60,535 nucleotides of DNA from Thermoplasmata archaeon (GCA_003551675.1 PUNG01000152.1:71377-131911); one strand, 5' to 3'; positions 8,524 through 30,598 are shown, counted from the first letter of the stretch. Numbers and translations are program-made. Notes: generated from the sequence alone by a model not told the origin.

Positions 8524-9144
8524 TTAACTTTTTTTCAATGATCGAAGCTTTTCTAAGAAGAAACAGAGGACATCTTTCAACAACTTCCAAACTTCCTTCA
8601 AAAAAGTGAAACTCTTTTTGTAATACATGGTGGCTGCGACAACTATGGTGATAAATAAACCCGCGGAGATGTCGGATACACTTGCGTATTGAGTTGCCGT
8701 ATCTGCCGCCGTCATTCTTTCGCTCACAATCTGTGTATCTTCTGCCAATATCACACCGTAGTTGAATGAGAAATCAGGGATGGGTATAGGTCCTATGAAT
8801 TGGAAGAACATCTCGGCTTCGAAGTAATAGAAGTCCGTGACGAAGGGATAAAGGAGTGCCATACCCTCTCCTAGATCTAAGATCAGATGGGACAGAAGAT
8901 AAAAAAAAGCTATCAGTCCGTATTCTCTATATTCCGGGTAGTACCTATCCAGATAAATTATGATGAGTACAGGAACGATCAGACCTATCAACAGATTGTG
9001 AAATAGCATCCGGTGTGCTCCTGGAAAGAAAAAATCTAGGTCCATGACCACACTGAAAGGCAGCATCAAGAGGGCTTTTCGAGTATCTACCCTCAATGCC
9101 AAAAGAATCAGTAAAGGTATCGTGATATGGGCGAAGGTGTCCAT
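8524..9144 (-). CDS. Membrane-bound metal-dependent hydrolase, YdjM/DUF457-like
   Basis: N-terminus MDTFAHITIPLLILLAL, several TM helices, and conserved His/Asp positions (FFPGAHRMLFHNL, SHLILDLGEG) are typical of the YdjM family. Confidence 0.65.
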   Translation of the reverse strand: MDTFAHITIPLLILLALRVDTRKALLMLPFSVVMDLDFFFPGAHRMLFHNLLIGLIVPVLIIIYLDRYYPEYREYGLIAFFYLLSHLILDLGEGMALLYPFVTDFYYFEAEMFFQFIGPIPIPDFSFNYGVILAEDTQIVSERMTAADTATQYASVSDISAGLFITIVVAATMYYKKSFTFLKEVWKLLKDVLCFFLEKLRSLKKS

Positions 9145-9258: not shown

Positions 9259-9888
9259 ATGGCGAAGAAAAAAGGCGTAAAGGGTTTTATGGGATTCAAA
9301 GGGGGTGAAGAGGATGAAGATGTAGGTTGCGAGTACCACATAGAACAGAGTGGTTCAAAAAAGCGTCTGGTGTTAGAATGTACTGAGTGTGATCTTACAC
9401 CTACATTGAAAGACCAAAAGTGCCTTGCTTCAGTCCTCAATTTAATGTCCGATGAGATGGTTATGGATTCAGTCGTATTATCACACTACGAAGATACGGA
9501 ATACTTTGGTCCGTCCATGGATGTTTTGAACAACTTGGTCGATTTCATGGACAGTATAAAGGATTTCACACTCAGGGACCCCATCGCGAGGTATTTTGAT
9601 TATTTGGATGACAAAAATAAGAAAAAACTCAAGTGCCATGAGTGTCCTTTCAATCCATCTATGGTGTTTTCAAGTCTTTATAAAAGTTTCTCCCAAGGCA
9701 TAGAAAAATACGAGATGGATTTCAATACGGTCGTCCGTCAGATAAACAAGTCACCCCAGAGCCATCCGGAATGCGAGGAGTGTACTTACTCGACCCTGGA
9801 GGACCTTGATTATCTAAAGAAGAAATACGAAAGGTTATACAAGATGACCATGAGGCAGATAGGTGGAGAAACTTTGGTAGAGAAGTGA
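9259..9888 (+). CDS. Cysteine-rich hypothetical protein, first gene of the pilus-like locus
   Basis: 209-aa ORF with paired cysteines (CEYH, CTEC, CHEC, CEEC) suggesting metal binding. It lies directly upstream of the secretion ATPase. No family is recognised. Confidence 0.6.
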   Translation: MAKKKGVKGFMGFKGGEEDEDVGCEYHIEQSGSKKRLVLECTECDLTPTLKDQKCLASVLNLMSDEMVMDSVVLSHYEDTEYFGPSMDVLNNLVDFMDSIKDFTLRDPIARYFDYLDDKNKKKLKCHECPFNPSMVFSSLYKSFSQGIEKYEMDFNTVVRQINKSPQSHPECEECTYSTLEDLDYLKKKYERLYKMTMRQIGGETLVEK

Positions 9889-9932
9889 ATTTGATTTTAA
9901 AACATTGATAATTAAAATGGAGATGTGGAAAT

Positions 9933-11759
9933 ATGGAAGCCGGCCAAAATATAGGTAAAGGCAATGTCCCGGGCGGCGGCGCTCAGATGGAAAAAAAAGT
10001 CGACCACGACATGGAAAAAAAGTTCAAAAGTATATTTGAGGCGTATCACAGGGTCAAACCTAAATTTTCCTCTTCTTGGTTGGTACTTAAACCTCCACCG
10101 GGTGCGGAAAAAGTCAAAGAATATTTGGTGGAGGAAGCTAGGATAACCCTTTATCGGCTGCCAGGCGAAACCGAGACCCTCTATCATGTCAAACCTTTGG
10201 AGTACACTTTACCCCAGGGCCAGAAAAAAATAATCACACTGGCTCGTAAGGAGATATTAGATCATTATCCTGGTAAGGAGAGAGGCCATCGACCGGCTTT
10301 CATAAGAGAATATGCAAAAAAAGAAGGCCACCGGCTGATCTACAAGTACGCCAATATCGAAGGAGTCAAATTAGGAAAAACCCGATCCGAAGAGTTGGCT
10401 AGAGTTAGGATGTTATCTAACATACTATCTAGATACACCATAGGTCTTGGGATCGTTGAAATACTGTTGAGAGATACCAGGACCACGGATGTTTACATAG
10501 ATGCTCCAGTAGAGGAAAGTCAGATATATACTATCATATCTTCCACGGGGTTGGACGATTCGATCCCTGCAAAATGTGTCACAAACATAGGACTCACAAA
10601 AGAAAGTGCGGATTCCATCATATCAAGACTGCAATATGAAAGCAGCAGGGCATTTTCAGAGGCTAGACCTGTTCTAGAGTGTAGCTTGGACGAGTATAAA
10701 ACAAGAGCTACAGTAATCGGCGAACCTTTGTCCCCTGAAGGAGTCTCGATAACTTTCAGAAGACATTCGCCCAATCCGTGGACTCTTCTGAGATTGATCT
10801 ACCAAAGGAGTATTTCCCCTCTTTCCGCCGGTTTACTCTCCTTCCTTATAGACGGTAACGCCACTTTGTTGGTAGCGGGTCCAAGAAGCGCAGGAAAGAC
10901 ATCGCTGGTAGCTGCTTTGATGTTTGAATTCCCTCCCAGTCAGCGTATAGTAACCATCGAGGATACTCTGGAGCTGCCTTGCCCCGCATTGAAGGAAAAG
11001 GGTTACAAGGTACAGTCCATGCATATCCAATCCGGCGGTATCGGCGGTCTCGGTGAAGTCACGGCCAAAGATTCACTAAGAGTATCTTTAAGATTGGGTG
11101 AATCTGCGATAGTGATGGGAGAAGTAAGAGGCGAAGAAGCTAGGACCCTGTACGAAGCCATGAGAGCGGGAACTGCCGGTAGTGCCGTTATGGGGACCAT
11201 ACACGCCGACTCCCCTCAAGCGGTCTACGAACGAGTGGTTTATGATCTGAATATCCCTCCAAAATCTTTTGCCGCTACCGATGGTGTAGTGATGGTAAAT
11301 TATAGACGGCCTAAAGGCTTACACCGTTTGGTTAGGAAGACTACTCAGATATCTGAAGTTAACAAGGACGCCATCCCCTCTTTAGTCGGTGCAGAGGAAG
11401 AATTCGTAGGAGGTGAAGAACTCTTCAACGATTTGATGCACTATTCTTCTGAAAAAGATAGGCTCGTAAAGACAGAATTCTTTGAAGGAGCATCATTACT
11501 CATAAAGAAGTTGGCAGATGATTGGGAGATGTCCATAGAAGAGGCGAACAAAAATATACATGCTAGAGCCAGGGTTAGGGCTGCAGTGGTGAACAGGGCA
11601 CAAAAAGAAGGTCGACTTGAACTGTTAGAGGCCGATTACGTGCCGGAGTACAACAACCAATTCTGGAATCTGTTGGAAAGGCAGATGGAGGAGTACGGCG
11701 AAGTTGACTATAACGAATTGGTAACAGACTGGCAAAGATGGTTCAAGGAGAGTTTCTGA
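9933..11759 (+). CDS. Type II/IV secretion system ATPase (archaeal FlaI/PilB/GspE-like)
   Basis: Walker A is VAGPRSAGKTSLV, the Asp/Walker B region is RIVTIEDTLEL, and the His box is GEVRGEEARTLYEAMRAGTAGSAVMGTIHADSP. The stop lies 1 nt before the start of the TadC-like gene. Confidence 0.9.
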   Translation: MEAGQNIGKGNVPGGGAQMEKKVDHDMEKKFKSIFEAYHRVKPKFSSSWLVLKPPPGAEKVKEYLVEEARITLYRLPGETETLYHVKPLEYTLPQGQKKIITLARKEILDHYPGKERGHRPAFIREYAKKEGHRLIYKYANIEGVKLGKTRSEELARVRMLSNILSRYTIGLGIVEILLRDTRTTDVYIDAPVEESQIYTIISSTGLDDSIPAKCVTNIGLTKESADSIISRLQYESSRAFSEARPVLECSLDEYKTRATVIGEPLSPEGVSITFRRHSPNPWTLLRLIYQRSISPLSAGLLSFLIDGNATLLVAGPRSAGKTSLVAALMFEFPPSQRIVTIEDTLELPCPALKEKGYKVQSMHIQSGGIGGLGEVTAKDSLRVSLRLGESAIVMGEVRGEEARTLYEAMRAGTAGSAVMGTIHADSPQAVYERVVYDLNIPPKSFAATDGVVMVNYRRPKGLHRLVRKTTQISEVNKDAIPSLVGAEEEFVGGEELFNDLMHYSSEKDRLVKTEFFEGASLLIKKLADDWEMSIEEANKNIHARARVRAAVVNRAQKEGRLELLEADYVPEYNNQFWNLLERQMEEYGEVDYNELVTDWQRWFKESF

Positions 11760-11760
11760 A

Positions 11761-13785
11761 ATGCCTGAAATGGATAATGAGAAAGATGGAGGTATTTTCG
11801 AGAAGGGCTGTAAATTTGCGAGTACCGTCTTCCAGTTGGATGTATCCACGAAAAGGAAAGAGAGGGAAGAGAAGCGAAAAGAAGAAGATAAAGATATAGA
11901 TAGAAAACTTAAAGAGGAGAAAGAAAAATTTGAAGAGATACGAAAAAAGCACTCCCCTGACAGCCCGAAGTTCAAACGATCTAAGCAGCGGTACGAACTA
12001 GCTCTAAGGGACCATGAGATCGAAAAAGACAAGATCGAAAAGGATGAATTTAGAGCGGCCATAAAGTTCTCCCAGATAGACGCGGAACCTTTTGAAGTCC
12101 AATATTTCGCCTATTTGGTAGGTTTGCTAGTTTTTTTGGGCACGCTGGTTTTGGTTCTTTACGCCTTATTTTTCACGGATATATCAGTGATAATAAAGAT
12201 GAGTTTATTTCTACCAGTAATGGTAGTTCCTCTCCTCGCCATCGCTTTCATCATGAATTTTCCATTTTACATGGCAAAAAGGAGGAGGGCTAAATCCCTA
12301 GGAAGGATGCCGGAAGCCATCAACTATATGGTCATGTCCATGTCGTTGACGCCGAACTTGGGGAGGGCTGTGGAATATGCGGCGGAAAGTGTTGAAGATC
12401 CTTTGTCTTCGGAGTTGAGGAAGATAATCTGGGATGTTGAGATGAGACGCTTCAGCACCATCGATGAATCATTCATGGCCTTCGCCGATGAATGGGGTAA
12501 ATGGAGCGAAGAATTCAGAAGAAGTCTATACACGCTTCGAAATGCGGCCCAGAAGGAGACGCAAAAAGAGGTCAACCAAACTCTACAAAAAGCTAACGAG
12601 ATCGCCGTGAGGGGTACAGAAAATAAGATGAGGGACTTTTCGGAATCACTGACAGTACCGGCTATGACTTTGTTCTCTTTGGGAAGCATACTCCCTCTTT
12701 TGTTAGCTGCACTTTTACCCATTTTGGCCATAGGAGATACCACGGCTGAGATGATAATATTTTTACTGAACGTGGTCATACCAGTTGGCTTTTTAACATA
12801 TGCGGTACACATATTAGGGTATAGGCCGACGATGAGGGCACCACTTCATCTATCTGACCTTCTCACCAAACGAGAAAAATACTCGGTCGTTGGCACATCG
12901 GTAGCTGTAGCCGCTATTATGATATTCTTAGGTTTCTATTGGAGACCCGATCATTCTTACCTGATATCTTTACTCCCTCTATGGGGTATCACCATCGCCA
13001 TAACTATTTATTGTTTCTTTACTTCTTACTTTCCTTTCAAACAAAGAGATAATGTATTGGAGATGGAGAACAGCTTTCCCAATGCACTGTTCCATCTAGG
13101 TGGATACATAAGCAGAGGTTCCCCTCCGGAACGGGCTTTTGAGAAAGTTTCTGAAAACATATACTCCTCCAGCGTCAGTATATTGTTCCAAAAGATATCT
13201 TATTCTCTGCACGTTACAAGAAAGTCTCTCTCCGATGTGTTGTTCGCTAAAGGAGGTGTATTAGAAAAAAATCCTTCTCAGATGATAAAGGCAACCACCA
13301 CCATGGTGGCTAGAGCTATCAAAAAAGACCCAGAAACGGCAGGAGATACTTTGGTAAGGATGTCAGGATACCTTACCGAACTTCAAAACATCGAGGAGGA
13401 GATGAAGAGCAGGCTTGGTGAAGTCACAGGGATGATGAAAGTGACGGCTCAATTTATAGCCCCGTTGGTCATGGGGATCACAGCCGTCCTTTATGTGATG
13501 TTATCCGGATATTTCGCAGATATCGAACTTGAAGGACCTATGGCAGGTATGGCTGGAGGTTTTATAGGTCAAGAAGCTCCCATAGGCGGCTTTGCCTTTT
13601 CTCTGGTAGTAGGTGTTTATCTGATCCTTCTGGTGCTTCTTACCGTGTTCTTCACAGTAGGTATAGAGAGTGGAGAGGACTGGGCCGACAGGAAGATGAC
13701 CGTTGTCAGGATCTTACCTGTATCCATGCTGCTCTACACGATTTCTGCGATACTAGCTGAGATCTTTTTGGCGGGTATAATCTAA
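11761..13785 (+). CDS. Type II secretion system F-family polytopic membrane protein (TadC/FlaJ/PilC-like) with a charged K/E-rich N-terminal extension
   Basis: Two T2SSF-like cytoplasmic segments (MPEAINYMVMSMSLTPNLGRAVEYAA... and NSFPNALFHLGGYISRGSPPERAF...) are each followed by TM helices. The gene is adjacent to the ATPase. The roughly 100-aa N-terminus is lysine/glutamate-rich. Confidence 0.85.
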   Translation: MPEMDNEKDGGIFEKGCKFASTVFQLDVSTKRKEREEKRKEEDKDIDRKLKEEKEKFEEIRKKHSPDSPKFKRSKQRYELALRDHEIEKDKIEKDEFRAAIKFSQIDAEPFEVQYFAYLVGLLVFLGTLVLVLYALFFTDISVIIKMSLFLPVMVVPLLAIAFIMNFPFYMAKRRRAKSLGRMPEAINYMVMSMSLTPNLGRAVEYAAESVEDPLSSELRKIIWDVEMRRFSTIDESFMAFADEWGKWSEEFRRSLYTLRNAAQKETQKEVNQTLQKANEIAVRGTENKMRDFSESLTVPAMTLFSLGSILPLLLAALLPILAIGDTTAEMIIFLLNVVIPVGFLTYAVHILGYRPTMRAPLHLSDLLTKREKYSVVGTSVAVAAIMIFLGFYWRPDHSYLISLLPLWGITIAITIYCFFTSYFPFKQRDNVLEMENSFPNALFHLGGYISRGSPPERAFEKVSENIYSSSVSILFQKISYSLHVTRKSLSDVLFAKGGVLEKNPSQMIKATTTMVARAIKKDPETAGDTLVRMSGYLTELQNIEEEMKSRLGEVTGMMKVTAQFIAPLVMGITAVLYVMLSGYFADIELEGPMAGMAGGFIGQEAPIGGFAFSLVVGVYLILLVLLTVFFTVGIESGEDWADRKMTVVRILPVSMLLYTISAILAEIFLAGII

Positions 13786-13852
13786 GACAAAGGACTAAAT
13801 GATGTTACAAAACGAAGGCCAAAATATACCCGGCCTCTCTGGGCGCATAGGA

Positions 13853-13866
13853 AAATATTTATTATT
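13853..13866 (+). promoter_or_regulatory. Candidate TATA box upstream of gene 13899
   Basis: AAATATTTATTATT lies about 40 nt upstream of the ATG, with AGAGGT 8 nt upstream of the ATG. It shares the 12-mer AAATATTTATTA with 9223-9234. Confidence 0.35.
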
Positions 13867-13898
13867 GAAGTTCATATGAGATTAAAGAGGTAGAAAAA

Positions 13899-14477
13899 AT
13901 GAAAAGGCTACCGGTTAGAAAAATAGAAGAAGACGAAGATGCCCAGATCATGGGGATACCACTTTATATATTGCTCATAGTTATCATAGCGGCGGTGTCC
14001 CTGGCAGCCATACTGGGATTTATGGTGACCACTGAGCCGAGCATAGATGAGATCAGGATACACGACGTGTATCATGGTGAACATGAAGATGTAGGTGATA
14101 TCTATGGATATCAGTCTAGTGTATATGTAGAAGATATAGATGAAGACTCAGGGATAGCCTATTATAGGGGATCTGAACGCCCGGATCCTGAAGATCCTGA
14201 TGGAACTTTATCACCGGCTGAAGGCTACGATACACATCTTGTGGTTACTATTTACAACGAAGAAGGAAGCCCCATGTCAGGTGTAGACGTAGAGGCCGAA
14301 GGAGCAGGAGTGAGTTCCGTAGGAACCACAAATGCTAGTGGGATGGTGGAACTATCATTGGACGGTTGCAGACTCCGCCGAAACCAAAACAACGCCCAGA
14401 TAACGGTAACGGGGACTTACGAAGGACTTATCGGCTCTGAATCCGTAAGAACCAACATATGGGTCCAAAGACCGTAG
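13899..14477 (+). CDS. Pilin-like/N-terminally anchored acidic protein with a carboxypeptidase-regulatory-like beta-sandwich C-terminus
   Basis: A charged leader is followed by a hydrophobic helix (EDEDAQIMGIPLYILLIVIIAAVSLAAILGFMV). The C-terminal motif VVTIYNEEGSPMSGVDVEA...TTNASGMVEL resembles CarboxypepD_reg-like domains. Confidence 0.6.
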   Translation: MKRLPVRKIEEDEDAQIMGIPLYILLIVIIAAVSLAAILGFMVTTEPSIDEIRIHDVYHGEHEDVGDIYGYQSSVYVEDIDEDSGIAYYRGSERPDPEDPDGTLSPAEGYDTHLVVTIYNEEGSPMSGVDVEAEGAGVSSVGTTNASGMVELSLDGCRLRRNQNNAQITVTGTYEGLIGSESVRTNIWVQRP

Positions 14478-14616
14478 GCCTATACGCACCCAACCCTCTT
14501 ATTTTTTATTTTGAAACTATCTACAAACCTCTTCCCAAAATCTTTAAGTATCACTCATGAGCCTATTATAGCTAAGAGTTATTGGGTACCCAAACGATAA
14601 TCAAAAGGTGGATATT

Positions 14617-17600
14617 ATGGAAGATGAAATGAAGAAGTACTTCAGCCCAGAAAGACGTATGGTATTCACCTTCATTGGTGTAACTTTAGCGGTCTCTTTT
14701 ATTGTCTTATCGCTTCTGACTCCTTTTTTGGCCAATGGAGGTATCTCTGAGCCATGTACATCACTTTCAACGAATGAAGATATAGATTCGCAAGAGGACG
14801 AGATAAAACATCTGACCTCCTGGGAACAGAGGACACAAGACGATTTTAAAGAAGGAGATCATACAAATTTAGATATGGATTCATCTCCTGGTGAAGTCAG
14901 GCTAGATTCATACCCCTATGTTATCGGTTCTGCCGAGATGCCTGAAAGCAGAGGGGACTGGAGTGGAGGAAATACGTATAAAACGGGGAGGACAGATTAT
15001 CAAGCGGACCGAGGAGGTACTATCAGGGAAGTCAATATGGCAACAGGGGACTTGGTATCTGATTTTGATTTCTTGGTCCTTAAACCAGGCGAAGGCGAAA
15101 ATGAATTTTGGGTGGACGAACCAGCGGGTTCAGAAACATTCCAACCCGAGGCAGAGGAGCATAACAAGTGGGATGGTCTAGAAATACCCATCGAACAAGG
15201 GGATTGGATCGGTTTGTACACTTACGGTACACTCACTGCAAGAGCTGAACCGGATGCTTCACACAGTTATTATAGTTATAACGGGAAGATCGGAGGTACA
15301 CCTCGAACCATGACTGAATATACTCAGTCATATCATCCAACAATGTCCGCGGAAGTGGAAACATATGAATTTGAAGGGACGCTGGAATCCGAAGTACATT
15401 ATGCGGGTCCCCATATGTATACCTGGGATGAAATAACATGGAGTGCCCAGGAACCAGAAGGATCGGAGTTGATCATCGAGATAAGTACTTCCGAAGATGG
15501 AAGCACCTGGTCCGAATGGGAGGTAGCTCAGAGAGGAGAGGATGTTCCAGGCGACGATAATCATCCTTATATACGGTACAGAGCCACCTTTACATCTGAA
15601 ACCGGAAAGGAGAGTCCGGTGTTAGACCGGATAAGTATGTATTACAGAGTGGGTGAATCCCCTCCTGATATCGTCCACGAGCCTCTGCATGAATGGCAGG
15701 GTTATGGACCTTATACCATCACTGCGGAGGTGACCAGCGATAGCCCCCTTGCGGATCCGCCTAAACTACATTACAACATCGATGGGGAAGAGGAACATGA
15801 ACGATATTTTGAGGCCGATTGGGGAGATCATTTTGAAATAGAGATAGAGGATCTGCCCCATTCAACAGAAGTTGCGTACTACATAGAAGCTGAGAATCAA
15901 GCGGGTATCAGCGAGAGTACCGACGAAGTAACCTTCAGTATAGATAAAGAACCTCCGGAAACTGAGGCAATACTATCAGGTGAAGAAGGCGAAGATGACT
16001 GGTTCATAAACGATGTTACAGTGGAGCTGGACGCTACAGACCTGTACTCTGGAGTAGGGTCTATACGGTATAGTTTCGACGGAGAGGGCTGGGAGGATTA
16101 TAACCGGCCGTTTCAGATAAGTGAGTCAGGGGTACATACCCTTTACTATTACTCTATCGATGGAGTAGGTAATCAAGAGGATGAAAATACCGTAGAGATC
16201 AAGGCAGATCTGGAACCTCCTATCATGGAAATAATCAAACCGGAACCTACCGGGGAAGACGATTGGTATTTAGAAGAGATAGACATACAGATAGTGACGG
16301 AAGACGAAACTTCAGGAGTAGATAGGGTCGAGTACCGCATGGATGATGGTGATTGGGAATCATACCAAAATCGTATCAGTTTAGATGAATCAGGGATATA
16401 CCTCATCGAGGTTCGTTGTTTTGATAACGCAGGGAATGTAAAAGAAGAAGATGCAGTCGAGATCAAAGTAGATCTAGATGATCCTTTGATCGAAACCGAA
16501 ATAATCGCGGAGGAAGGAAGAGATAATTGGTATGTGAGTGAGACCGAAGTAGAACTAGATGCCGAAGACGAAGTATCCTCTATATCTAATATTTTCTACA
16601 GGATCAACGATGAGCAAGAATGGATAGAGTATGACGAGGAGATAGTACTAGGTGATGGAATATATCTACTGGAGTATTACTGCATCAACGGTGCAGGTAG
16701 AGAATCCGAGATAGAAGTGGAAGAGATCAAAGTAGATACATCACCACCAGAACTTAAAATCGAGATGCCCTCGGGAACGGGATGGACTAATGAAGATGGC
16801 ACAGTGAGCGTAGAAACCAAGGATATCATATCGGGTGTGCGAGAGATTAGTTACACGTTGAACAGAACCAACGACGACTGGGAGAATACAACAACTCTTG
16901 AGTATGATGATAATCCCTCTGACGTGAATATTACATTTGACGTACCTCCACACCAACACAGAAGATCAGGTAGATGGGATATAATCGTTGAAGTCAAGGA
17001 TCTAGCAGGGAATATCAACTCTACAGAAATCTTAGATATGAGTCTAGAATATCTTGTAGATTTCGAGGAACCCCTTCTAGACACACCTAAGGCAAGTTCT
17101 ACAGTTTGGAGAAACGACCTCACGATCTCAGTGATGGCGCAATCTCACCACAGCGGTATAGAACGGGTGATTTTGGAATACGATGCAGGGGATGGATGGC
17201 GATCTGAAGATATGAGAGATGAAGGCGGGGAATACACGGCAACCATATCAGGCAGTGAAGTGGGATTCAGCGATGTAGAGTACCGAATAACGGTGACAGA
17301 TGGAGCTGGAAACGAAGTGACCATGGAGGACTCCAAGATCGCTGAAGTCGGCATCAATTGGTGGTACTTAAGTCCCATATTCATCGTGATCGTCCTCATA
17401 ATTGCTTTTGCGTACTGGAAGAAAAACAGGGAGGAGCACGAAAAGCTGATGCCGATGAAAGAATCTAAGCTCTCAAAATTGAGAGGCGACAGAGAAAAGA
17501 AATTAGAACAAATCAAAAGAGATAGATCTGAAAGAACGATGAGTGTATCCTCTACTTCCGAGGAAGATGCACCGCCTCCTCCAGGAGATGATGGAGCACA

Positions 17601-18333
17601 ACCTCCACCGCCACCGGCAGCGGTTTCAGGCACTTCTGAATCGTCGGGACAGGACTGCTGTATCTGTGAAAGTCCAACTGATTCTACTACTGGCTTGGAA
17701 TGTGATTGCGGAAATGTTTACCACGATGATTGCTTGATGGCCGAGAAAAACTGTCTAAGATGTGATAGGGATTATACCGATGTAATTGCTCTTTCGAAGG
17801 GTGAAGAATTAGAAGAGGAAGAGTTTGAAGAGGAAGTTGTATTTGAGTGCTACAGTTGCGGCTCGGAGATCAACGAGGAAGATGAATCCTGTGAAGCATG
17901 TGGAGTCGTTTTCGAGGATGAGTTAGAGGAAGAACAGGAGTCAGAGCAAGAGGTGGAGGAAGAGCAGGAGGAAGAACAGGAGTCAGAGGAAGTGCAGGAG
18001 TCAGAGCAAGAGGTGGAGGAAGAGCAGGAGGAAGAGCAGGAGCCAGAGGAAGAACAGGAGTTAGAGGAAGTGCAAGAGTCAGAGGAAGTGCAGGATTCAG
18101 AGGAAGAGCAGGAATTAGAGGAAGAGCAGGAGCCAGGGGAAGAACAGGAGTCAGAGGAAGAACAGGAATCAGAGATATGGGATGAAGGAACAAGTGAGGG
18201 ATCCGAAAAAGAGACGGAAAAAGCCGAGAAAAAAGCTGACGCCGGTGAAACGATAGTCTGTCCTCTGTGTAATAATAAAAACGAGCCAGGAACTGAAAGA
18301 TGTTGGGCGTGTCATAACGATCTTACTGAGTAA
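14617..18333 (+). CDS. Large two-pass membrane protein: extracellular Ig-like repeats, a cytoplasmic C4HC3 zinc finger, two zinc ribbons and a polyacidic repeat
   Basis: The ATG at 14617 has GGTG 6 nt upstream; the alternative in-frame GTG at 14608 (track start, 1241 aa) overlaps that GGTG. From 14617 the product is 1238 aa. TM1 is MVFTFIGVTLAVSFIVLSLL. Five tandem repeats of about 85-105 aa span 15943-17330, with the motif D..SG(V/I)..(I/V).Y...........(Y/I).......G.(H/Y).(L/I).(Y/V)...D.(A/V)GN. TM2 (WWYLSPIFIVIVLIIAFAYW) is at 17359-17418. The roughly 305-aa tail carries Cys motifs at 17656-17763, 17848-17901 and 18259-18312. Confidence 0.85.
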   Translation: MEDEMKKYFSPERRMVFTFIGVTLAVSFIVLSLLTPFLANGGISEPCTSLSTNEDIDSQEDEIKHLTSWEQRTQDDFKEGDHTNLDMDSSPGEVRLDSYPYVIGSAEMPESRGDWSGGNTYKTGRTDYQADRGGTIREVNMATGDLVSDFDFLVLKPGEGENEFWVDEPAGSETFQPEAEEHNKWDGLEIPIEQGDWIGLYTYGTLTARAEPDASHSYYSYNGKIGGTPRTMTEYTQSYHPTMSAEVETYEFEGTLESEVHYAGPHMYTWDEITWSAQEPEGSELIIEISTSEDGSTWSEWEVAQRGEDVPGDDNHPYIRYRATFTSETGKESPVLDRISMYYRVGESPPDIVHEPLHEWQGYGPYTITAEVTSDSPLADPPKLHYNIDGEEEHERYFEADWGDHFEIEIEDLPHSTEVAYYIEAENQAGISESTDEVTFSIDKEPPETEAILSGEEGEDDWFINDVTVELDATDLYSGVGSIRYSFDGEGWEDYNRPFQISESGVHTLYYYSIDGVGNQEDENTVEIKADLEPPIMEIIKPEPTGEDDWYLEEIDIQIVTEDETSGVDRVEYRMDDGDWESYQNRISLDESGIYLIEVRCFDNAGNVKEEDAVEIKVDLDDPLIETEIIAEEGRDNWYVSETEVELDAEDEVSSISNIFYRINDEQEWIEYDEEIVLGDGIYLLEYYCINGAGRESEIEVEEIKVDTSPPELKIEMPSGTGWTNEDGTVSVETKDIISGVREISYTLNRTNDDWENTTTLEYDDNPSDVNITFDVPPHQHRRSGRWDIIVEVKDLAGNINSTEILDMSLEYLVDFEEPLLDTPKASSTVWRNDLTISVMAQSHHSGIERVILEYDAGDGWRSEDMRDEGGEYTATISGSEVGFSDVEYRITVTDGAGNEVTMEDSKIAEVGINWWYLSPIFIVIVLIIAFAYWKKNREEHEKLMPMKESKLSKLRGDREKKLEQIKRDRSERTMSVSSTSEEDAPPPPGDDGAQPPPPPAAVSGTSESSGQDCCICESPTDSTTGLECDCGNVYHDDCLMAEKNCLRCDRDYTDVIALSKGEELEEEEFEEEVVFECYSCGSEINEEDESCEACGVVFEDELEEEQESEQEVEEEQEEEQESEEVQESEQEVEEEQEEEQEPEEEQELEEVQESEEVQDSEEEQELEEEQEPGEEQESEEEQESEIWDEGTSEGSEKETEKAEKKADAGETIVCPLCNNKNEPGTERCWACHNDLTE
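17917..18176 (+). repeat. In-frame acidic (E/Q/S/V) tandem repeat inside CDS 14617..18333
   Basis: 17941-18000 and 18001-18060 align with a 60-bp period and only a few mismatches. They are embedded in degenerate 18-bp units GAGGAAGNNCAGGAGNCA that encode EEEQESE-type peptides. Confidence 0.85.
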
Positions 18334-18353
18334 AACAAAGAGGAAGATAAGAT

Positions 18354-18860
18354 ATGAGAGAGTTAAAACGATCTGAAGATGGAGTGATGGATTATCCATT
18401 TAGACTATTGATCATATCCATCGTGCTGGTCATAGCTATACCAACGATGCTTTCGGCTTTATCTCACTACCGCACGAGGAGTGCAGAAGAGCAGCTCTCT
18501 CAAGAAGCGAACCAGATCGCATCGGCGGTGGAAAGTGTTTACATACAAGGTGTGAACGCAAGCACCAGTTTAGAAATAAATCTGCCTGAGGATACAGAGC
18601 ATTTGAAGGTTGGTGCTCCTCTATCTAGATCAGTTCATACTAGAGCTATTTATTATCAACTCAGGGGACAACCCGAGGACTCTATCCTTGTGACCCATGG
18701 TCTTCGAGGCATCCCTATGACTTCTCCACACAATGACACCCTTATAATACCCGAAGGCAGACACAGAATTTTGATGGTGAAAAGACAAGCAGACTTTGAT
18801 ATAACCGGTGATGGAGTCGCAGGCGATTACTTTGTTGAGATCGACGTGATGGAGTGGTAG
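18354..18860 (+). CDS. Pilin-like protein (putative class III signal peptide)
   Basis: The N-terminus MRELKRSEDGVMDYPFRLLIISIVLVIAIPTML is a short charged leader ending in G followed by a hydrophobic helix. The gene lies in the pilus-like locus, with its stop 1 nt before the next start. Confidence 0.65.
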   Translation: MRELKRSEDGVMDYPFRLLIISIVLVIAIPTMLSALSHYRTRSAEEQLSQEANQIASAVESVYIQGVNASTSLEINLPEDTEHLKVGAPLSRSVHTRAIYYQLRGQPEDSILVTHGLRGIPMTSPHNDTLIIPEGRHRILMVKRQADFDITGDGVAGDYFVEIDVMEW

Positions 18861-18861
18861 T

Positions 18862-19377
18862 ATGCTGGATTGGGCCCTCTCAAAGGTGTTTATATCTATA
18901 TTTACCATGGGCATAGTAGTTTTCTCTATATTCGTTTTTTCCGCTGCTAGAGATGATCTAGGAGAAACCCAGTTAGAGAATATATCCAAAGAAATATCTT
19001 CTCGAGTAAATGAACTGTCCAATACGTACTCTAACTCATCAGTTTACTTCACATTCAGAGAGAACGCTTCCGCTATCGAACTACCTTCGGACATGGATGG
19101 AGATGAATATGATATCCGGATCAGTTCTGACAGTGTTACTGTCCAGATGGATGGAAAACTGGCTTCTTCAGATATTCGCGCCGAAGATGCAAGCAGGGTT
19201 CACCTGTGGCACCCTGACAAAATAAATTATACTACGAATCAAACGGAATTAGAAGAACTCGATAACGAGAACAGGTTTTTAGATGTGGTTTCTGGAGAGG
19301 GATTCAGAGTGGTCAGGACAGAACTGATAGTTAACGGCGAGATCGAATACCACACCTTTATCTTTGAAGATTATTAG
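18862..19377 (+). CDS. N-terminally anchored small protein, paralog of CDS 44988..45515
   Basis: N-terminal TM is VFISIFTMGIVVFSIFVFSA. The blocks DGDEYDIRIS...VQMDG...VHLWHPD correspond to NGDPYDMEIT...LKQDG...IHLWEPG in the 175-aa protein at 44988. Confidence 0.65.
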   Translation: MLDWALSKVFISIFTMGIVVFSIFVFSAARDDLGETQLENISKEISSRVNELSNTYSNSSVYFTFRENASAIELPSDMDGDEYDIRISSDSVTVQMDGKLASSDIRAEDASRVHLWHPDKINYTTNQTELEELDNENRFLDVVSGEGFRVVRTELIVNGEIEYHTFIFEDY

Positions 19378-19436
19378 AGGATGGTAGAAGCATACTCTGC
19401 GTAGTGTATACTCTTGTCTAAGCGAGTTTTCAGTTC

Positions 19437-22400
19437 CTACTCTCTGAGGCAAAAAATGTTTTCGTAGATGTGATATTGATCAACATATGTTTTTTCTTCT
19501 TCATCATCCAACACGGTTCTACCTAATTCTGCTGTAAAGAAGTCCGCTTTTCTTCCGATCCCTATGGAAGGTTCTGCCGATGCCCACCAAGCAAAGTTTC
19601 CTCTGGTGTAGTTTCCTTCAGGACCTATTATTTCAAAAGAATAATTGTTCAACATGTTTTCATCGGTCCGTGTGAAAAGAGAGGGTGCGGGAGAATTAAT
19701 TCCTAGATTTCTACCCACGAAACGTATGTCGTTGATGAATAGTCTAACATACTCGATCATTTCGTTCTGAGTGGTACTGTTTGTCCAGTAGATGAAGCGC
19801 CTCTGCTGTAAGGAGGAATAAGATTCATTGACATGGAAATAGAAACCTATCTCATCCAGTTCTTGGAACAACTCAGGCTCTTTGTACAGTTCTTCATGCA
19901 TCTCTTTCAAAAGATCCTTGGTGAAATGAATAAAGCCATCATAAGAGTTGTTCTTGTCTTCCAAAGCAGCGGTGAACCAATCCTCCACTTCCACCGGTAG
20001 TTCTCCTCCTCTTGTTTTTATACCTACGTCTACAGAATGATTATAACCTAGGTTGGGAAGTTTGATATTGGTGAAATAGTCCTCTTCGACATCGTATAGA
20101 CTGATCTCATGGGCTGAGAGTCTCTCCGGAGGATAAAACAATTCAAAACTGAAATTATCCAGCGTTGTGTTTTTATATGCCTCTATCACTACGCGTTCAT
20201 CCCGGTTTGGATCGACTTCGATCTTTAGGTCAGTGTTTCCAAAACGTTGGGCGGTATAACTGAATTCCTCTTCACCCAGCTCAAACACGATCTCCGTCCG
20301 ATTACTTTTATAAGTCGGACTCAGTATATCTTCTTCAAGGTCGACACTTAGATCGAATCCCATGGAAGGATATTCAAACACGCTTTTTTCTACTCCGTCA
20401 GGTAGTGCCGTATCCAATATGTTGTTTTTTTCTTTCTCTATAAACTCAAAATAAGCGGTATCGTTGTAGGTATCATAATATATATTGTCTATGGTACTCA
20501 TCAAACTGGTCAGATCCGAACTGGTATGATCTGCATCGGCTAGAGCCGAGTGAGTACCTCCTCTTAGATGCGCACGGACGGAATTTAGAGTGTTAGTAGA
20601 CCTAGATAACACATCAGTTTTTGCCTGGGTTAGGTTCATCAAAGGTCTCGAAACATAGATGGCTTCTTCTTTCAAAGGTTTCCAAACATCTTTAGTGTAG
20701 TCTAGATCCAACGGTTCTTCCTCCTTTAACTCAAAATAACTCCTAGTCATCTGATAGTTCACATCATTGGTTAGCCAACCGGATTCAAGCGGCCAGGCGG
20801 TATGTATCGGCAGAGTGTAGTTGTAATCCAGTTCCAATGTTCCGTTGTACCAGGTTGATCTGTGGACGCCAACAGGTATGTTTCTGCGGGAAGTGGTGGT
20901 ATTGACCCCAAGAGTTCCCTGTATAGAAACATTAAGTGCTGTTTGAAATGAACTCCACGACATGTTAGTCCTCAATTCCGGTTCTTCCGCATATCTTCCC
21001 TGCACGTCCACGAAATGTTGACCCTTTTTTGGATATTCTATATCTATGGTGAGATTGTCTCCATCTTCTTCAAGATACTCGGAAAATTCAACATGGTAGG
21101 TTTCATTGAGGACTCTCTGCCGTTGCTCGTCGTAGGTGCGGTTGACACGCCAATTGTATCGCGGCTGGGTTGAGTCCGTGGCTAAAAAGAGCTCCTCTTG
21201 ATTGACATAAGTGTTCCTGTGTATGTCACGCAAAGTTGTTTCTTGTAGTTTATGCTGAAGCCAGCCGTTCTCCTGAGAGAGGTTCAACAGCATGTTCTCT
21301 CTCTCGTTCTCATGGCCGATGCTTCTCACAGCGATATGCTCTAAAACAAAATCATAAAAATTTCCTTCCCCCACGCGTTCTCCTTCGTATTCGCCCACAT
21401 CCGTGGTTTCGTCCATATCTTCTTTTAATTCCTGCGTGATCTGGTCTTCTGAAAGCAGACCATGTTCACCGACGACTTCTTCCGTGGCCTCTCGTATATC
21501 CTCCCATAGTCTGTCCCAGATGGCCTGATCGTGCCAGGTTGTCTGTGCATCAGTGGGGATTATCGAGTTTCTATAATTTAAGCACTGGGGGCAGGCCCAA
21601 CAAGGTTGTCCTATCGTGGTCTCCCAAGCTTCGTCTAAAAACGACTGTCTTCTTGGTATAGCTATATCTCTTACTCTTTGATTGACGTCTTTCATGGCAT
21701 CCTGGCGGAAAGAGAAAGTACCTTGGGAAGATTCGCCGTCACTGCGCTGCTCTTCTTCAGGTGGTTCTAACGAAACCGTTCCTTCAGGATTACCCTCCCT
21801 TTCCACTCCTCCGTCGTATAGGTTGACCACGGCTTCATACCAAAGGTCTACGGTCTCGCTGGTCAAGTGGTAAAGAAAATCATCTTCGTATTCTCTTTTA
21901 TAAGCACCTTCGCCCCACCATTCGTCCCTTTGATAAAAATCATCCGTTATCTCTTCAAATTCATTTATAGCTTCGTTGATGGGTCCTTCTTCTTCAGAGA
22001 TCATGTATTCAGTACCGTTCATCAACATGGATCTATTATCTTCTGGATCTATATCTATGTCGAATTCTTTCGTGCCAACCATCTCGGCCATATCATGACT
22101 TATGGTATCCATGAAACCTTTTTCTTCTACGTCATCGATATCTTCCGAACGCTGTCTTACACTGCGATTGATGGTTTCAAGTATATATTCTAGAGTGTCG
22201 TAGTAAGGCGTATTTCTTCCTTGATCGTACCTGGCGATGAAAGACTCCTGGACCAAATAATATTCTATGGATCTAGCAGGTACACTACTGAAATCATCAT
22301 CAAAGTGTAGAACATAAGTTTCAGGATCAAGGTCGTTGTTTTCAGGATCTCCGAGTATTAGGTCTATGGTATCAGGCACCTCGTCGGACTCCATCTCCCA

Positions 22401-23762
22401 ATTACCTTGCTGATGATTCGGACCCACACTGAACACCCAATAATGCCCTCCAACGGGTCGAGGAGGTTCTGTAGAATGACATTCCCATATGTAATCTGAT
22501 CCGTATTCTGTCGCCGAAGTTCTAGAATGCATTTTCCTTATCTCAGTACTAGCCTCCTGGGCGTCGAGACTTTCTGGTATGTCCAACCAGTCTCTGTACA
22601 CCTCCAACCAGGTCCTCACCTGCTTTTCGGCCCATTCCTCTCCCTTCTCTTCCATGGCCTCCCAGTCCACCACCGGTTCGGAGAGCGTAGGATCAACTAT
22701 CTCATCTCCCCAGAACAGTTCGTAGAGATCCAAAACAAAATCTTCGCCGAAGGGATAGATCGCTTGAGCCAAAACCTTCCCTGCATCGACTTCCTGCTCT
22801 TTTATGTTTTGGTACATCAGGAAAACGTCGGCTGCATCTATAGTGCCGTTTTTAGTGTAATTTTCGAGCATGGAATCCACGCCCATTTTCTCTGCAATAT
22901 CTTCATCGTAATCACCGTAAAGTCTAGAGGCTTCCAGCAGTAAAGCCAAGTTCACAGCTATCTCCACATCTTCTTTAGTCAACAAACTTTCTATATCCCC
23001 CTCGTTCTCCCCGTAACCACCGCTGGCGTTGCCGAAAAGAGTTCTGGTCTGGGTTATGGTAGATAACTGATATCTTATCAATTTGCCCACTTCACCAAAG
23101 GGATCCCGAGATTCTCCTTTGAACTCCTCGAATCGACCTTTCAAGTAAAAGATAGGAGAGTATACGTTCTCGTGGAATTCTTTGTTATAAGTCACGTTGT
23201 GTCCCGAGGCTTCGCTGTAAACCGACATCTTCAGTTCGCCCATAACTCTTCCATAGAGCGGGGTTTTCTGTTCTCCATAGGAGCTGCGGTTAGTATGATC
23301 CCCTTCCTCTAACGGAGAAGCTTGGAACGGTTCTATTGTTTCATCTTGAGGATAAAACTGATCGTTAGTTTGCTGCGTATCTCTCACGTCCGATACTATG
23401 CTTATGGACCAATCATCTAGGTAAACTATACTGTTCCTTGCTCTTGAGGGGTAGGTATTGTTGATATACTCCTCAAAAGATTCTTCCACAGTCGTTTGAA
23501 GCGTAGACATATCAGGGTCCCGCTCTTTGGTCAACCCATGTATCTCCTGGAGTACTAGATGATGTGCTCTCGTAGAGAGATCATTTTTTGCCTCTGCAGC
23601 AGCTTCAGAAGTCTGTCTATTGGGGTTGTATATAGAGACGTCTCTGCCCGATTCATCGATCTGTCCCACCATGGCAAAAGCTATGGTCGAAAGTAAAATT
23701 AGAACCACACCTATCAATGCAAAGGGTATCTTCCCACGGTCATCCATCATTATTTCTCGCAA
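19437..23762 (-). CDS. Giant (1441 aa) N-terminally anchored, probably extracellular glycoprotein of unknown function; paralog of CDS 45512..50905
   Basis: An uninterrupted 4.3-kb ORF. GAGGT lies about 6 nt upstream of the TTG at 23762, and there are ATGs at 23750 and 23747. The N-terminus is DDRGKIPFALIGVVLILLSTIAFAMV. Many N-x-S/T sequons are visible by eye. Two collinear blocks are shared with the 1797-aa protein: PIFYLKGRFEEFKGE / NFFLMAERMENFRLE and EIAVNLALLLEASRLYGDYDED / QAIVELALLLEQARVFRSYDEE. Confidence 0.85.
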   Translation of the reverse strand: MREIMMDDRGKIPFALIGVVLILLSTIAFAMVGQIDESGRDVSIYNPNRQTSEAAAEAKNDLSTRAHHLVLQEIHGLTKERDPDMSTLQTTVEESFEEYINNTYPSRARNSIVYLDDWSISIVSDVRDTQQTNDQFYPQDETIEPFQASPLEEGDHTNRSSYGEQKTPLYGRVMGELKMSVYSEASGHNVTYNKEFHENVYSPIFYLKGRFEEFKGESRDPFGEVGKLIRYQLSTITQTRTLFGNASGGYGENEGDIESLLTKEDVEIAVNLALLLEASRLYGDYDEDIAEKMGVDSMLENYTKNGTIDAADVFLMYQNIKEQEVDAGKVLAQAIYPFGEDFVLDLYELFWGDEIVDPTLSEPVVDWEAMEEKGEEWAEKQVRTWLEVYRDWLDIPESLDAQEASTEIRKMHSRTSATEYGSDYIWECHSTEPPRPVGGHYWVFSVGPNHQQGNWEMESDEVPDTIDLILGDPENNDLDPETYVLHFDDDFSSVPARSIEYYLVQESFIARYDQGRNTPYYDTLEYILETINRSVRQRSEDIDDVEEKGFMDTISHDMAEMVGTKEFDIDIDPEDNRSMLMNGTEYMISEEEGPINEAINEFEEITDDFYQRDEWWGEGAYKREYEDDFLYHLTSETVDLWYEAVVNLYDGGVEREGNPEGTVSLEPPEEEQRSDGESSQGTFSFRQDAMKDVNQRVRDIAIPRRQSFLDEAWETTIGQPCWACPQCLNYRNSIIPTDAQTTWHDQAIWDRLWEDIREATEEVVGEHGLLSEDQITQELKEDMDETTDVGEYEGERVGEGNFYDFVLEHIAVRSIGHENERENMLLNLSQENGWLQHKLQETTLRDIHRNTYVNQEELFLATDSTQPRYNWRVNRTYDEQRQRVLNETYHVEFSEYLEEDGDNLTIDIEYPKKGQHFVDVQGRYAEEPELRTNMSWSSFQTALNVSIQGTLGVNTTTSRRNIPVGVHRSTWYNGTLELDYNYTLPIHTAWPLESGWLTNDVNYQMTRSYFELKEEEPLDLDYTKDVWKPLKEEAIYVSRPLMNLTQAKTDVLSRSTNTLNSVRAHLRGGTHSALADADHTSSDLTSLMSTIDNIYYDTYNDTAYFEFIEKEKNNILDTALPDGVEKSVFEYPSMGFDLSVDLEEDILSPTYKSNRTEIVFELGEEEFSYTAQRFGNTDLKIEVDPNRDERVVIEAYKNTTLDNFSFELFYPPERLSAHEISLYDVEEDYFTNIKLPNLGYNHSVDVGIKTRGGELPVEVEDWFTAALEDKNNSYDGFIHFTKDLLKEMHEELYKEPELFQELDEIGFYFHVNESYSSLQQRRFIYWTNSTTQNEMIEYVRLFINDIRFVGRNLGINSPAPSLFTRTDENMLNNYSFEIIGPEGNYTRGNFAWWASAEPSIGIGRKADFFTAELGRTVLDDEEEKTYVDQYHIYENIFCLRE

Positions 23763-23829
23763 AATTATACCTCTTTCTAAGTGATATAGTGTTTTTAAGA
23801 TTATTTATATATTCCGCTATTTTCGTACA

Positions 23830-24360
23830 TCAGGCTAACCAGATCCTCAGATTGGCGGTATAGGTTTTGTTATCGTCTGGCGTATGAAGTTCTTGAGACG
23901 CTGAGAAAACCTCTTCTCTACCCTCAACTGGCTGACCAAAGTTGAAAGAAGCGTTACCAGAAGACCAGGCGGTGAAGTTAAAATCATATTGAGGATGGAT
24001 CAATCGTTGTAAGGATTCGTTGAGAGGGCTCTCTATACCTTCTATTAAACTCTTGTTCTCCACATCGGTATTATCTCTCAGATATAGATTTTCAACGATC
24101 AGTTCCGAGGTCGTTTTATCGTCTAAGTGGATAGTTTCGTTCTCGTATTCATAAGAAGTGCGGCTCAGTGTCGAATGTAGGAATGAATCCAATGTACTTT
24201 CCCCGTAAACTCTCATGGATTCCTTTGCTTCTGGTGAGCTAGAAGGGAAGGAAACAAAGGCTAAGATCAAAGACCCTATCATCGCGATGCTGAAGAAGAT
24301 AAGCGCGTCTATTAAACTAGACTGTCCTTCATCTGAACGGGTCAATCTATTCATCTCCAC
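23830..24360 (-). CDS. Pilin-like protein with a class III signal peptide-like N-terminus
   Basis: MEMNRLTRSDEG|QSSLIDALIFFSIAMIGSLILAFV is a charged leader with a G-Q junction followed by a hydrophobic helix. The gene overlaps the upstream gene by 10 nt. Confidence 0.7.
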   Translation of the reverse strand: MEMNRLTRSDEGQSSLIDALIFFSIAMIGSLILAFVSFPSSSPEAKESMRVYGESTLDSFLHSTLSRTSYEYENETIHLDDKTTSELIVENLYLRDNTDVENKSLIEGIESPLNESLQRLIHPQYDFNFTAWSSGNASFNFGQPVEGREEVFSASQELHTPDDNKTYTANLRIWLA

Positions 24361-24839
24361 ACCTCCACTCTCATCCTAGCAGTGTGTACCTCGTTGGTAT
24401 CTACGACTATATTTACTGAAAGATAGATCACTTTCCTTCCTTCCTGGTAGTCCTCCGCGGTGAAATTGTGTTCTGGTTCTCTCGACCAAGTTTGGTTGTA
24501 TCTGACGGAGTAATTGCTCACATCGGTGATCTCGACTCGATAAAAGAAGTCTGGATAATTTAAAGACCGTGTAAGGTTTTCAGATTCGAGCCCTTGGATC
24601 TTCGTGGCATCGAATCGACCCACTTCGCCTTCGTGGAGAAGTAGAGGTGAGGATCTAACGGCGTCGGCGAACTCTAAAGCTTCTCTTTCAAAATCTGAGA
24701 TAGATGTTTTTTGCTCGTGTCTGCCTATAGCTGAATATATGCTAGCTAAAAATATCACGGTAGCTACTACGACTATAAGAAGGGCAGGAACGTCTTCGTA
24801 AAAACCCACGACACCTTTGTCGTCCATTTTTCTTTTCAT
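24351..24839 (-). CDS. Pilin-like protein (start trimmed to ATG at 24839)
   Basis: From M94 of the track ORF the sequence reads MKRKMDDKGVVGFYEDVPALLIVVVATVIFLASIY, a charged leader plus a hydrophobic helix. The upstream 93 codons overlap cyanophycinase on the opposite strand and look non-coding. A TATA-like CTTTTATATG lies about 24 nt upstream (24858-24867, minus strand). Confidence 0.65.
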   Translation of the reverse strand: MKRKMDDKGVVGFYEDVPALLIVVVATVIFLASIYSAIGRHEQKTSISDFEREALEFADAVRSSPLLLHEGEVGRFDATKIQGLESENLTRSLNYPDFFYRVEITDVSNYSVRYNQTWSREPEHNFTAEDYQEGRKVIYLSVNIVVDTNEVHTARMRVEVWR

Positions 24840-25806: not shown

Positions 25807-25808
25807 GA

Positions 25809-30548: not shown

Positions 30549-30598
30549 CTATTTAACTTTGAGGTTGGTCGAACATGAAGTTACAAACCATAACTGTT

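Follow-up and report, generated by a model that had tools for sequence, protein, structure and literature searches.

What kind of surface machinery is encoded by a locus in which a secretion ATPase stands among pilin-like and giant proteins? The question is raised by a 60,535-nt stretch of DNA from a Thermoplasmata archaeon (GCA_003551675.1, PUNG01000152.1:71377-131911; the whole 60.5-kb stretch is referred to as the window), which between positions 9259 and 24839 carries ten genes, here numbered g1 to g10. Seven of them (g1 to g7) lie on the plus strand and are met by three converging genes on the minus strand (g8 to g10), and 10/10 are present as open reading frames (ORFs) where an earlier interpretation made without database searches, the sequence-only reading, had placed them. 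That interpretation had proposed a type IV pilus-like locus, and its core is upheld by a secretion ATPase, a TadC-like platform protein and five predicted class III-type substrates. To judge from its predicted proteins and their relatives, the type IV filament locus is genuine and conserved, and a family of giant pilin-like proteins stands at its centre. The reading that we prefer, with a probability of roughly 0.55, is that the locus encodes a pilus-like type IV filament system which belongs to a halophilic member of the Thermoplasmatota and is closest to the computationally defined subsystem 4F. The base composition of the locus is uniform with the rest of the window, so nothing flags it as foreign. 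A scan for bacterial-type promoters and terminators gave counts at the level of shuffled sequence, a type of scan that is uninformative for an archaeon.

The motor of the system is encoded by the first three genes. The g2 gene (9933-11759, plus strand) encodes an intact TadA/FlaI-type secretion ATPase of 608 amino acids (aa) which matches the Pfam T2SSE family (3.8e-16) and the NCBIfam models for TadA (1.4e-35) and FlaI (1.1e-31), and whose Walker A motif, GPRSAGKT, is intact as read from the translation. Its best relatives of solved structure in the PDB are the GspE protein of A. fulgidus (afGspE, 2OAP), CpaF and FlaI, in agreement with the earlier description of a FlaI/PilB-like assembly ATPase. 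The 209-aa cytoplasmic protein encoded by g1 (9259-9888, plus strand) had been noted earlier as Cys-rich; it aligns to residues 59-226 of an 831-aa ATPase homologue (P0074) at 33% identity (E 1e-33), and its eight cysteines, which form four CxxC-type pairs, are all conserved in the alignment (8/8). By this homology g1 is the split-off N-terminal Cys-rich (zinc-type) domain of the ATPase, carried as a gene of its own. The split is real and recurrent, because the ATPases of close relatives are likewise about 604 aa long and thus separated from the Cys domain, and because separate g1-like genes also precede the ATPase in the related loci L008 and L030. The g3 gene (11761-13785, plus strand) encodes a 674-aa polytopic platform protein with about nine hydrophobic helices, TadC/FlaJ-like as the earlier description had it; its match to Pfam T2SSF (7.3e-5, 23.2 bits) lies just under the 25.2-bit cut-off, identities of 27-35% connect it with the genes found next to homologous ATPases, on their downstream side, in L007, L008, L029 and L030, and a T2SSF match is on record for its counterpart in L030.

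Candidate substrates were sought by scanning every ORF of at least 80 aa, from every start codon and on both strands of the window, with a relaxed FlaFind-type pattern combined with a hydrophobic stretch. The scan returned five candidates, all of which lie within the locus: g4 (13899-14477, plus strand, 192 aa), g6 (18354-18860, plus strand, 168 aa), g8 (19437-23762, minus strand, 1441 aa), g9 (23830-24360, minus strand, about 174 aa with a likely start at 24354) and g10 (24351-24839, minus strand, 162 aa, its start mapped to 24839 within a longer ORF that reaches 25118). The pilin-like starts attributed to these five proteins were thereby recovered, whereas in the sixth protein so described, g7 (18862-19377, plus strand, 171 aa), the helix at the N-terminus is accompanied by neither a leader nor a cleavage motif. 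The predicted leaders and cleavage sites (marked by arrows) read ...EDEDA↓QIMGIPLYILL in g4, ...RSEDG↓VMDYPFRLLII in g6, ...SDEG↓QSSLIDALIFF in g9 and MKRKMDDKGVVG↓FYEDVPALLIVVV in g10, and the N-terminal site predicted for g8 is DDRG↓KIPFALIGVVLILL. These class III-type motifs are kept in orthologues at 25-70% identity. The orthologues of g4 have the form [GA]↓xxEG/MG[ILM]P and those of g6 E[DE][GA]↓V[ML]DYP; the g9 motif [KRES][GA]↓QS[SA]xxDA persists from halophile to DHVE2 orthologues at 25-35% identity, the g10 motif G↓F[FY]E[ED] is retained in the orthologues from DHVE2 and L030, and the g8 motif G↓[KR][IV]PFA is invariant in distant relatives.

The g4 protein contains an Ig-like beta-sandwich domain, with weak matches to the Pfam families MG4, Big_1 and CarboxypepD_reg. 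Counterparts of g4, which in L029 and L030 come next after TadC and in Haloterrigena adjoin an ATPase gene, have a common [GA]↓xxEG[LM][GP]L motif together with Ig-like matches. On these sequence features g4 is a plausible short pilin and a candidate for the main filament subunit, which makes the earlier statement that a short major pilin is missing from the locus doubtful. A major pilin of the PilA/Pilin_N type was not found in the window by Pfam or by the motif scan. Of the other small proteins, g7 has a counterpart in L029 (1e-5), and g9, for which the homologue search returned nine close relatives only, too shallow a set for modelling, is encoded directly upstream of the giant in most loci for which that flank is available. 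N-glycosylation sequons occur in g7 to g10 at 2-3.4 per 100 aa (2.9 in g7 and 2.0 in g8) compared to 0.35 in 12 cytoplasmic proteins of the window, a 6-10 fold enrichment that fits the composition expected of exposed archaeal surface proteins.

The g8 gene encodes the giant around which the minus-strand genes are arranged. A word-indexed search with g8 found 15 relatives, and a full HMMER scan of 1.84 billion representative sequences expanded the family to 140 clusters at E<=1e-3, of which 86 reach E<=1e-10. Members are mostly 1250-2000 aa long, extend to 2142 aa and have chiefly the first ~350 residues in common, and every named member belongs to the Thermoplasmata. Within g8 a conserved scaffold extends to about residue 1040 and is followed by a variable C-terminal region of about 400 aa. 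Most of the 31 family members that were scanned for domains have none in Pfam, while others carry LTD, GH25, PKD/Big_5, a transglutaminase-elicitor domain, a metallophosphatase, a C39-like peptidase or CBM_11. The GH25 domain (E 2.5e-47) is found in giants of the DHVE2 group (P0007-P0009), where it is inserted at a point corresponding to g8 residues ~816-833 in proteins that are about 28% identical to g8 over the scaffold. A search of Pfam detected no GH25 match in g8 or in its distant paralogue h2, and no enzymatic domain in g8; sequence and profile searches of the PDB found no relative of the giant family. By these searches the giants belong to no characterised family, and in this respect the earlier impression of proteins without recognisable function stands. 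We regard g8 as a candidate tip-displayed 'modular pilin'. Giant pilin-like proteins of the Aciduliprofundum lineage have already been listed, though not discussed, since Table S4 of Makarova (2016) contains a 2159-aa arCOG02420 'pilin' of Aciduliprofundum MAR08-339 (889907-896386) that is FlaFind positive.

The window holds a second copy of this arrangement beyond the original locus, a pair of plus-strand genes (44988-50905) that lies downstream of a gene for an MscS-type channel and away from any ATPase. The first gene, h1 (44988-45515), encodes a 175-aa paralogue of g7 (blastp 1.7e-13) with a weak DUF7266 match. The second, h2 (45512-50905), encodes a 1797-aa protein which aligns with the giant family, matches g8 over its residues 243-337 (blastp 8.7e-4) as well as at the N-terminus, and has an N-terminal helix at residues 13-31.

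The largest plus-strand gene, g5 (14608-18333), is inserted between g4 and g6 and encodes a 1241-aa protein which, as had been noticed earlier, is a two-pass membrane protein. Its tail carries Cys clusters. The helices are located at residues 19-37 and 916-934, and the protein has a Sec-type start. The earlier view that it lacks any recognisable function holds in part only, as the outside part of about 880 aa contains three OmpL47-type/Big_13 beta-sandwich domains (NCBIfam NF047446, 1.1e-48; Pfam Big_13). Tandem beta-sandwiches followed by a C-terminal transmembrane anchor (916-934) are the features of an ordinary Ig-repeat surface or S-layer-like protein, but the cytoplasmic tail of about 300 aa (17650-18333) is atypical of such proteins: it contains a RING/PHD-like Cys/His cluster of the pattern C-x2-C-x11-C-x-C-x5-H-x2-C-x6-C-x2-C, and two CxxC...CxxC zinc ribbons between which an 18-nt tandem array (17920-18174) encodes acidic, E/Q/S-rich repeats. 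Orthologues of g5 occur in the halophile clade only, that of L003 with Zn_ribbon matches, and PDB sequence and profile searches found nothing for g5. Because g5 breaks the g4-g6-g7 order that is present in L029, it is a lineage-specific addition. The hexapeptide EGDHTN that is common to g5 and g8, and that had been pointed out earlier, is rejected as a link between the two and put down to chance: when both proteins are shuffled, a common hexapeptide turns up in 12% of cases, and orthologues do not preserve the motif. A two-helix 'Zn-ribbon domain containing protein' of 1500-1700 aa adjoins the type IV pilus ATPases of Aciduliprofundum, which is a parallel with g5 that need not mean homology.

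Synteny ties the minus-strand genes to each other more widely than to the motor. A genome scan based on an eight-sequence alignment of the giant recovered 20 loci in halophilic Thermoplasmatota and DHVE2 archaea, and the g10-g9-giant triad is present in most of them where the upstream flank is available and conserved enough for detection. The convergent g5-g6-g7 genes are found in the halophile clade only, and the ATPase, TadC and g4 genes abut the triad module only in the closest relatives of the window. The giant is nevertheless encoded within 10 kb of the ATPase in four separate lineages, namely the window clade, L028, L029 and L030, at identities of 20-56%, and TadC accompanies the ATPase wherever the sequence reaches it, which leaves out L028, whose locus ends inside the ATPase gene. 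In L028, a DHVE2 locus, a fused Cys-ATPase lies about 7 kb from the triad; L029 combines ATPase, TadC, g4-, g6- and g7-like genes and a giant within 10 kb; and L030, from a high-GC lineage, brings together g10-like, g9-like, giant, g1-like, ATPase, TadC and g4-like genes at 22-44% identity. In L034 the giant stands beside a cluster of Pilin_N genes and a tubulin homologue.

How might such a machine work? We infer leader cleavage, filament formation and the location of the giant from the predicted proteins. A prepilin peptidase encoded elsewhere in the genome would trim the class III leaders, after which the ATPase/TadC motor would use the hydrophobic helix at each N-terminus to draw the proteins out of the membrane and stack them into a filament or a short stalk. 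The Ig-domain protein g4 would be the likeliest bulk subunit, while g6, g7, g9 and g10 may be 'minor pilins' of low abundance whose role is to prime assembly and to make up a complex at the tip. The giant g8, an oversized modular pilin in this view, would be anchored at the tip through its pilin-type N-terminus, and its scaffold may expose the outer part, which varies between lineages, so that it can touch other cells or polymers. The g5 protein could be a lineage-specific membrane-spanning accessory that may link the Ig-like array on the outside to the cytoplasmic machinery via its zinc-finger tail.

A number of results weigh against a 4F-like filament system. In L003, L005, L012 and most DHVE2 loci the triad has no ATPase close to it, and in L007 and L008 the ATPase/TadC pair lacks the triad. 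The K/R at position +1 of the g8 motif is outside the classical FlaFind set, and the DUF7311, DUF7266 and DUF7286 matches are all below their cut-offs: g6 is distantly similar to DUF7311 (0.007) over nearly the whole profile, g7 to DUF7266 (4.4e-4), and g8 to DUF7286 at 25.5 bits (cut-off 27) over positions 1-46 only of a profile of about 1000 positions. Structure prediction was uninformative. AlphaFold2 models of g8 residues 1-1200 (13-sequence alignment) and of g9 (nine close homologues) both have a helix-then-strands topology, but their mean predicted local distance difference test (pLDDT) scores of only 49 and 54 are too poor to identify a pilin fold; Foldseek found nothing below E=2 for the g8 model in the PDB and no significant match for the g9 model, with generic alpha/beta hits only at E>0.02. 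As the sequence-only reading had stated, a Peptidase_A24-type prepilin peptidase is absent from the multi-pass membrane ORFs of the window, although in archaeal genomes, for example that of Aciduliprofundum, this enzyme is usually encoded elsewhere. A YdjM-like membrane protein (8524-9144) was considered as a divergent prepilin peptidase and rejected, as it matches DUF457/YdjM and lacks peptidase motifs. Finally, the assignment to 4F rests on architecture and not on a phylogeny of the ATPase.

Part of this evidence can be read differently. The locus could encode a bindosome-like or pseudopilus display platform, in which a short, cell-bound stalk or surface patch holds the giants, and perhaps g5, at the envelope and not on a long pilus; it would be comparable to the bindosome of Sulfolobus, by which binding proteins are anchored. 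Such a platform would suit a locus that is dominated by minor-pilin-like genes and giants and that lacks a PilA/Pilin_N-type major pilin, and for archaeal type IV filament machineries the presentation of functional class III proteins is either known or has been proposed; g7 and h1, without cleavable leaders, could be its membrane-anchored base components. Yet g4 is a plausible polymerising subunit whose position next to TadC, on its downstream side, is conserved, the gene for a major pilin could lie at another place in the genome, a common situation in archaea, and sequence alone does not tell a short filament from a long one, so we consider the platform possible but doubtful. The scattered distribution of the modules raises the further question of whether the triad and g5-g6-g7 are merely adjacent to the motor and form an independent surface module, S-layer-like or adhesin, that is exported and anchored without this ATPase and TadC. 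This would account for triads that lack a near ATPase (L003, L005, L012 and most DHVE2 loci), for the ATPase/TadC pairs that stand alone in L007 and L008, and for the resemblance of g5, with its Sec-type start, to an ordinary Ig-repeat surface protein. It is distinctly unlikely, as the conservation of class III-type motifs implies that a type IV machinery of some kind processes and assembles these proteins, the linkage recurs in four lineages at low identity, including a match of the full locus in L030, and pilin sets that are separate from ATPase/TadC modules are described as normal in archaea.

It is also conceivable that the machine resembles type II secretion and that a short pseudopilus pushes the giants off the cell as effectors, which in relatives would be enzymes such as a GH25 lysozyme. 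The GH25 muramidase in relatives of the giant, the Amidase_6 and LysM/NlpC-P60 proteins encoded in its neighbourhood in L029 and L030, and the antibacterial activity of a GH25 enzyme of A. boonei (PMC4241558) would all suit an exporter. Against this, the giant has retained the hydrophobic N-terminal helix of a pilin, which speaks for a protein that stays in a filament and is not set free, archaea lack the outer membrane for which a piston would be needed, and the giant of the window has no detectable enzyme domain; release in this manner seems very unlikely. The sequence-only reading had raised a host-contact apparatus of a DPANN-type episymbiont, to which the acidic proteome and a related contig titled 'Candidatus Aenigmatarchaeota archaeon' might point. 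This idea is hardly credible, because the proteins of that contig and almost all named homologues are labelled Thermoplasmata/Thermoplasmatota or Ca. Natronoplasma, because g2 has 4204 relatives at E<=1e-20 of which the named ones listed near 50% identity are from Thermoplasmata metagenome-assembled genomes (MAGs), and because the gene set is metabolically broad (cyanophycin synthetase, glycerol catabolism, gyrase, heliorhodopsin) on a contig of up to 132 kb. The public labels of the contig in question (JBKHKA010000007.1, L010/L001) conflict, as its title names an Aenigmatarchaeota archaeon and its proteins are named 'Candidatus Natronoplasma sp.'.

Within the preferred reading of a 4F-like filament, a more specific and tentative proposal concerns what the giants are for. 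The g10-g9-giant triad might sit at the tip of a type IV filament as a module that presents payloads, Thermoplasmata in all named cases, with the giant as a scaffold for swappable effectors; we consider this rather unlikely at present. Besides the GH25 insertions, an Amidase_6 protein adjoins the giant homologue in L029 (14795-18823), and a protein with two LysM domains and Amidase_6/NlpC-P60 is encoded two genes from the giant homologue in L030 (17689-20163). To our knowledge the Thermoplasmata have no murein of their own. The peptidoglycan-hydrolase thread that runs through the giant family is suggestive, the window proteins themselves carrying no such domain, and a search of the literature found no link between archaeal peptidoglycan hydrolases and type IV machinery. 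If the proposal were true, the DHVE2 archaea would use as effector a GH25 lysozyme, which may be the antibacterial enzyme known from Aciduliprofundum boonei, and the system would be the first pilus-based contact-dependent device of archaea that grips and attacks bacteria, or harvests their walls. In that case the payloads of the two giants of the window (1441 and 1797 aa) would still await discovery and would be suited to life in hypersaline communities.

The locus is of wider interest since archaeal type IV filaments beyond the archaellum and a few adhesive pili are known from genome surveys only, and no 4F-like system has been studied experimentally. It offers a compact and conserved list of parts, in which an ATPase with a split-off Cys domain and TadC are joined by a single pilin of the Ig type, four proteins that resemble minor pilins and a giant whose start is pilin-like, and ties this list to a giant family of about 140 clusters that is described by no database family. 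A family with cell-wall-hydrolase members provides a testable route to how wall-less or S-layered archaea may present large effectors and fight or feed on bacteria.

Other genes of the window are recorded here for completeness. The pilus locus is directly flanked by genes for a cyanophycinase (Peptidase_S51) and a cyanophycin synthetase (24988-28541), which are also its neighbours in contig L001, and a gene trio with Roadblock/LC7, V4R and CBS domains (29753-31174, minus strand) lies at a similar distance from the locus in L001. Genes for small Arf/Ras-like GTPases are found near the related loci L007 and L034. Upstream of the locus, a plus-strand gene (5956-7398) encodes a very acidic 480-aa protein with four CARDB repeats, whose C-terminal end, ...RIPGFTILLLIFASSMAFVIYHRIKVKEK, resembles a PGF-CTERM archaeosortase sorting signal. 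Further downstream, a class II aminoacyl-tRNA synthetase (31282-32802, plus strand) has an N-terminal tRNA_bind_4 domain (9.3e-43), an architecture which we take to be that of the rare methanogen-type seryl-tRNA synthetase, and a heliorhodopsin gene (33926-34687, minus strand) matches Pfam PF18761 at 1.9e-104.

How does the locus compare with known systems? The ATPases of the archaeal type IV pilus subclade 4F have an extra N-terminal Cys-rich domain (Makarova, Koonin & Albers 2016, PMC4858521), and the identification of g1 as the N-domain of the ATPase supports a 4F-type reading because it matches this feature. The Haloarcula 4F locus listed in Makarova Table S4 encodes, in order, an Asp-rich protein, a pilin, an ATPase (arCOG01818), a 9-TM (transmembrane segment) TadC (arCOG01814) and three pilins (PMC4858521). 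The large surface protein of 4F systems has been called adhesin-like, and tubulin neighbours have been noted for 4F (Sivabalasarma & Albers 2026, bioRxiv 10.64898/2026.04.22.720090). The window locus resembles these systems in its Cys-rich ATPase domain, its single-gene TadC of about nine transmembrane helices, its several downstream pilin-like genes, its large signal-bearing surface or adhesin-like protein (in Haloarcula the 1000-aa arCOG02945, which presumably corresponds to DUF7286, given their matching length) and, in some relatives, its tubulin-homologue neighbours. It differs in that the Cys-rich domain is a separate gene, that the giant is 1441 aa long with likeness to DUF7286 over the first ~46 residues only, that a triad on the opposite strand and an inserted 1241-aa zinc-finger membrane protein are present, and that no Asp-rich arCOG07564-like gene was recognised in the locus; its host is a Thermoplasmatota archaeon, whereas 4F hosts are Halobacteria or Methanomicrobia.

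Further parallels come from Haloterrigena plasmid loci. The best haloarchaeal plasmid match to g2 is a Haloterrigena ATPase with 39.7% identity and a Cys-containing N-terminus; a true DUF7311 protein (8.5e-51) is encoded directly upstream of it, and the g4-like protein beside it combines the motif DRA↓IEGLPIRL with an Ig-like domain. These loci comprise only the ATPase, TadC and two small genes, and no annotated DUF7286 neighbours were found there. The Pfam links between the window locus and 4F-type families are weak, and it is the 4F-like architecture together with the Haloterrigena parallels and the sub-threshold DUF7311 and DUF7266 matches that leads us to classify the locus as a variant, from the Thermoplasmatota, of the 4F-type system. 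As the general architecture has already been catalogued computationally as 4F, the locus is less unprecedented than the sequence-only reading held.

The large surface protein PilY1 of Pseudomonas and Myxococcus is encoded together with about four small pilin-like genes and is presumed to form a priming or tip complex. By analogy g8 may be a large surface protein that likewise acts with about four small pilin-like partners, but PilY1 lacks a pilin N-terminus, has a C-terminal beta-propeller and shows no sequence similarity to g8. A second point of comparison is the GH25 muramidase of A. boonei, an enzyme that is lethal to Bacillaceae and whose induction occurs in co-culture (Metcalf et al. 2014, PMC4241558). 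This enzyme may belong to the giant family; it has GH25 in common with DHVE2-group homologues of the giant, whereas the giant of the window has neither GH25 nor any other peptidoglycan hydrolase domain.

In mechanistic terms the nearest studied analogue would be the modular type IV pilin of bacteria, in which a pilin moiety bears a bulky grafted module and which is located at the filament tip (Raynaud et al. 2021, PMC8179133). Like the PilB and PilC proteins of Streptococcus sanguinis (PMC8179133) and the large tip pseudopilin GspK, g8 has a class III-type N-terminus that is followed by a bulky extra module. Also as in the bacterial systems, it is co-encoded with a few small minor pilins, its modules vary among relatives, and a location at the tip would be expected. 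Unlike the bacterial proteins, of which the largest in the survey has 860 aa (PMC8179133), g8 has 1441 aa and its relatives reach 2142 aa; it is archaeal, the pilin fold of its N-terminal part is putative, and its module is not a recognisable one. The locus may extend the 'modular pilin' idea to the archaea and to proteins of a much larger size.

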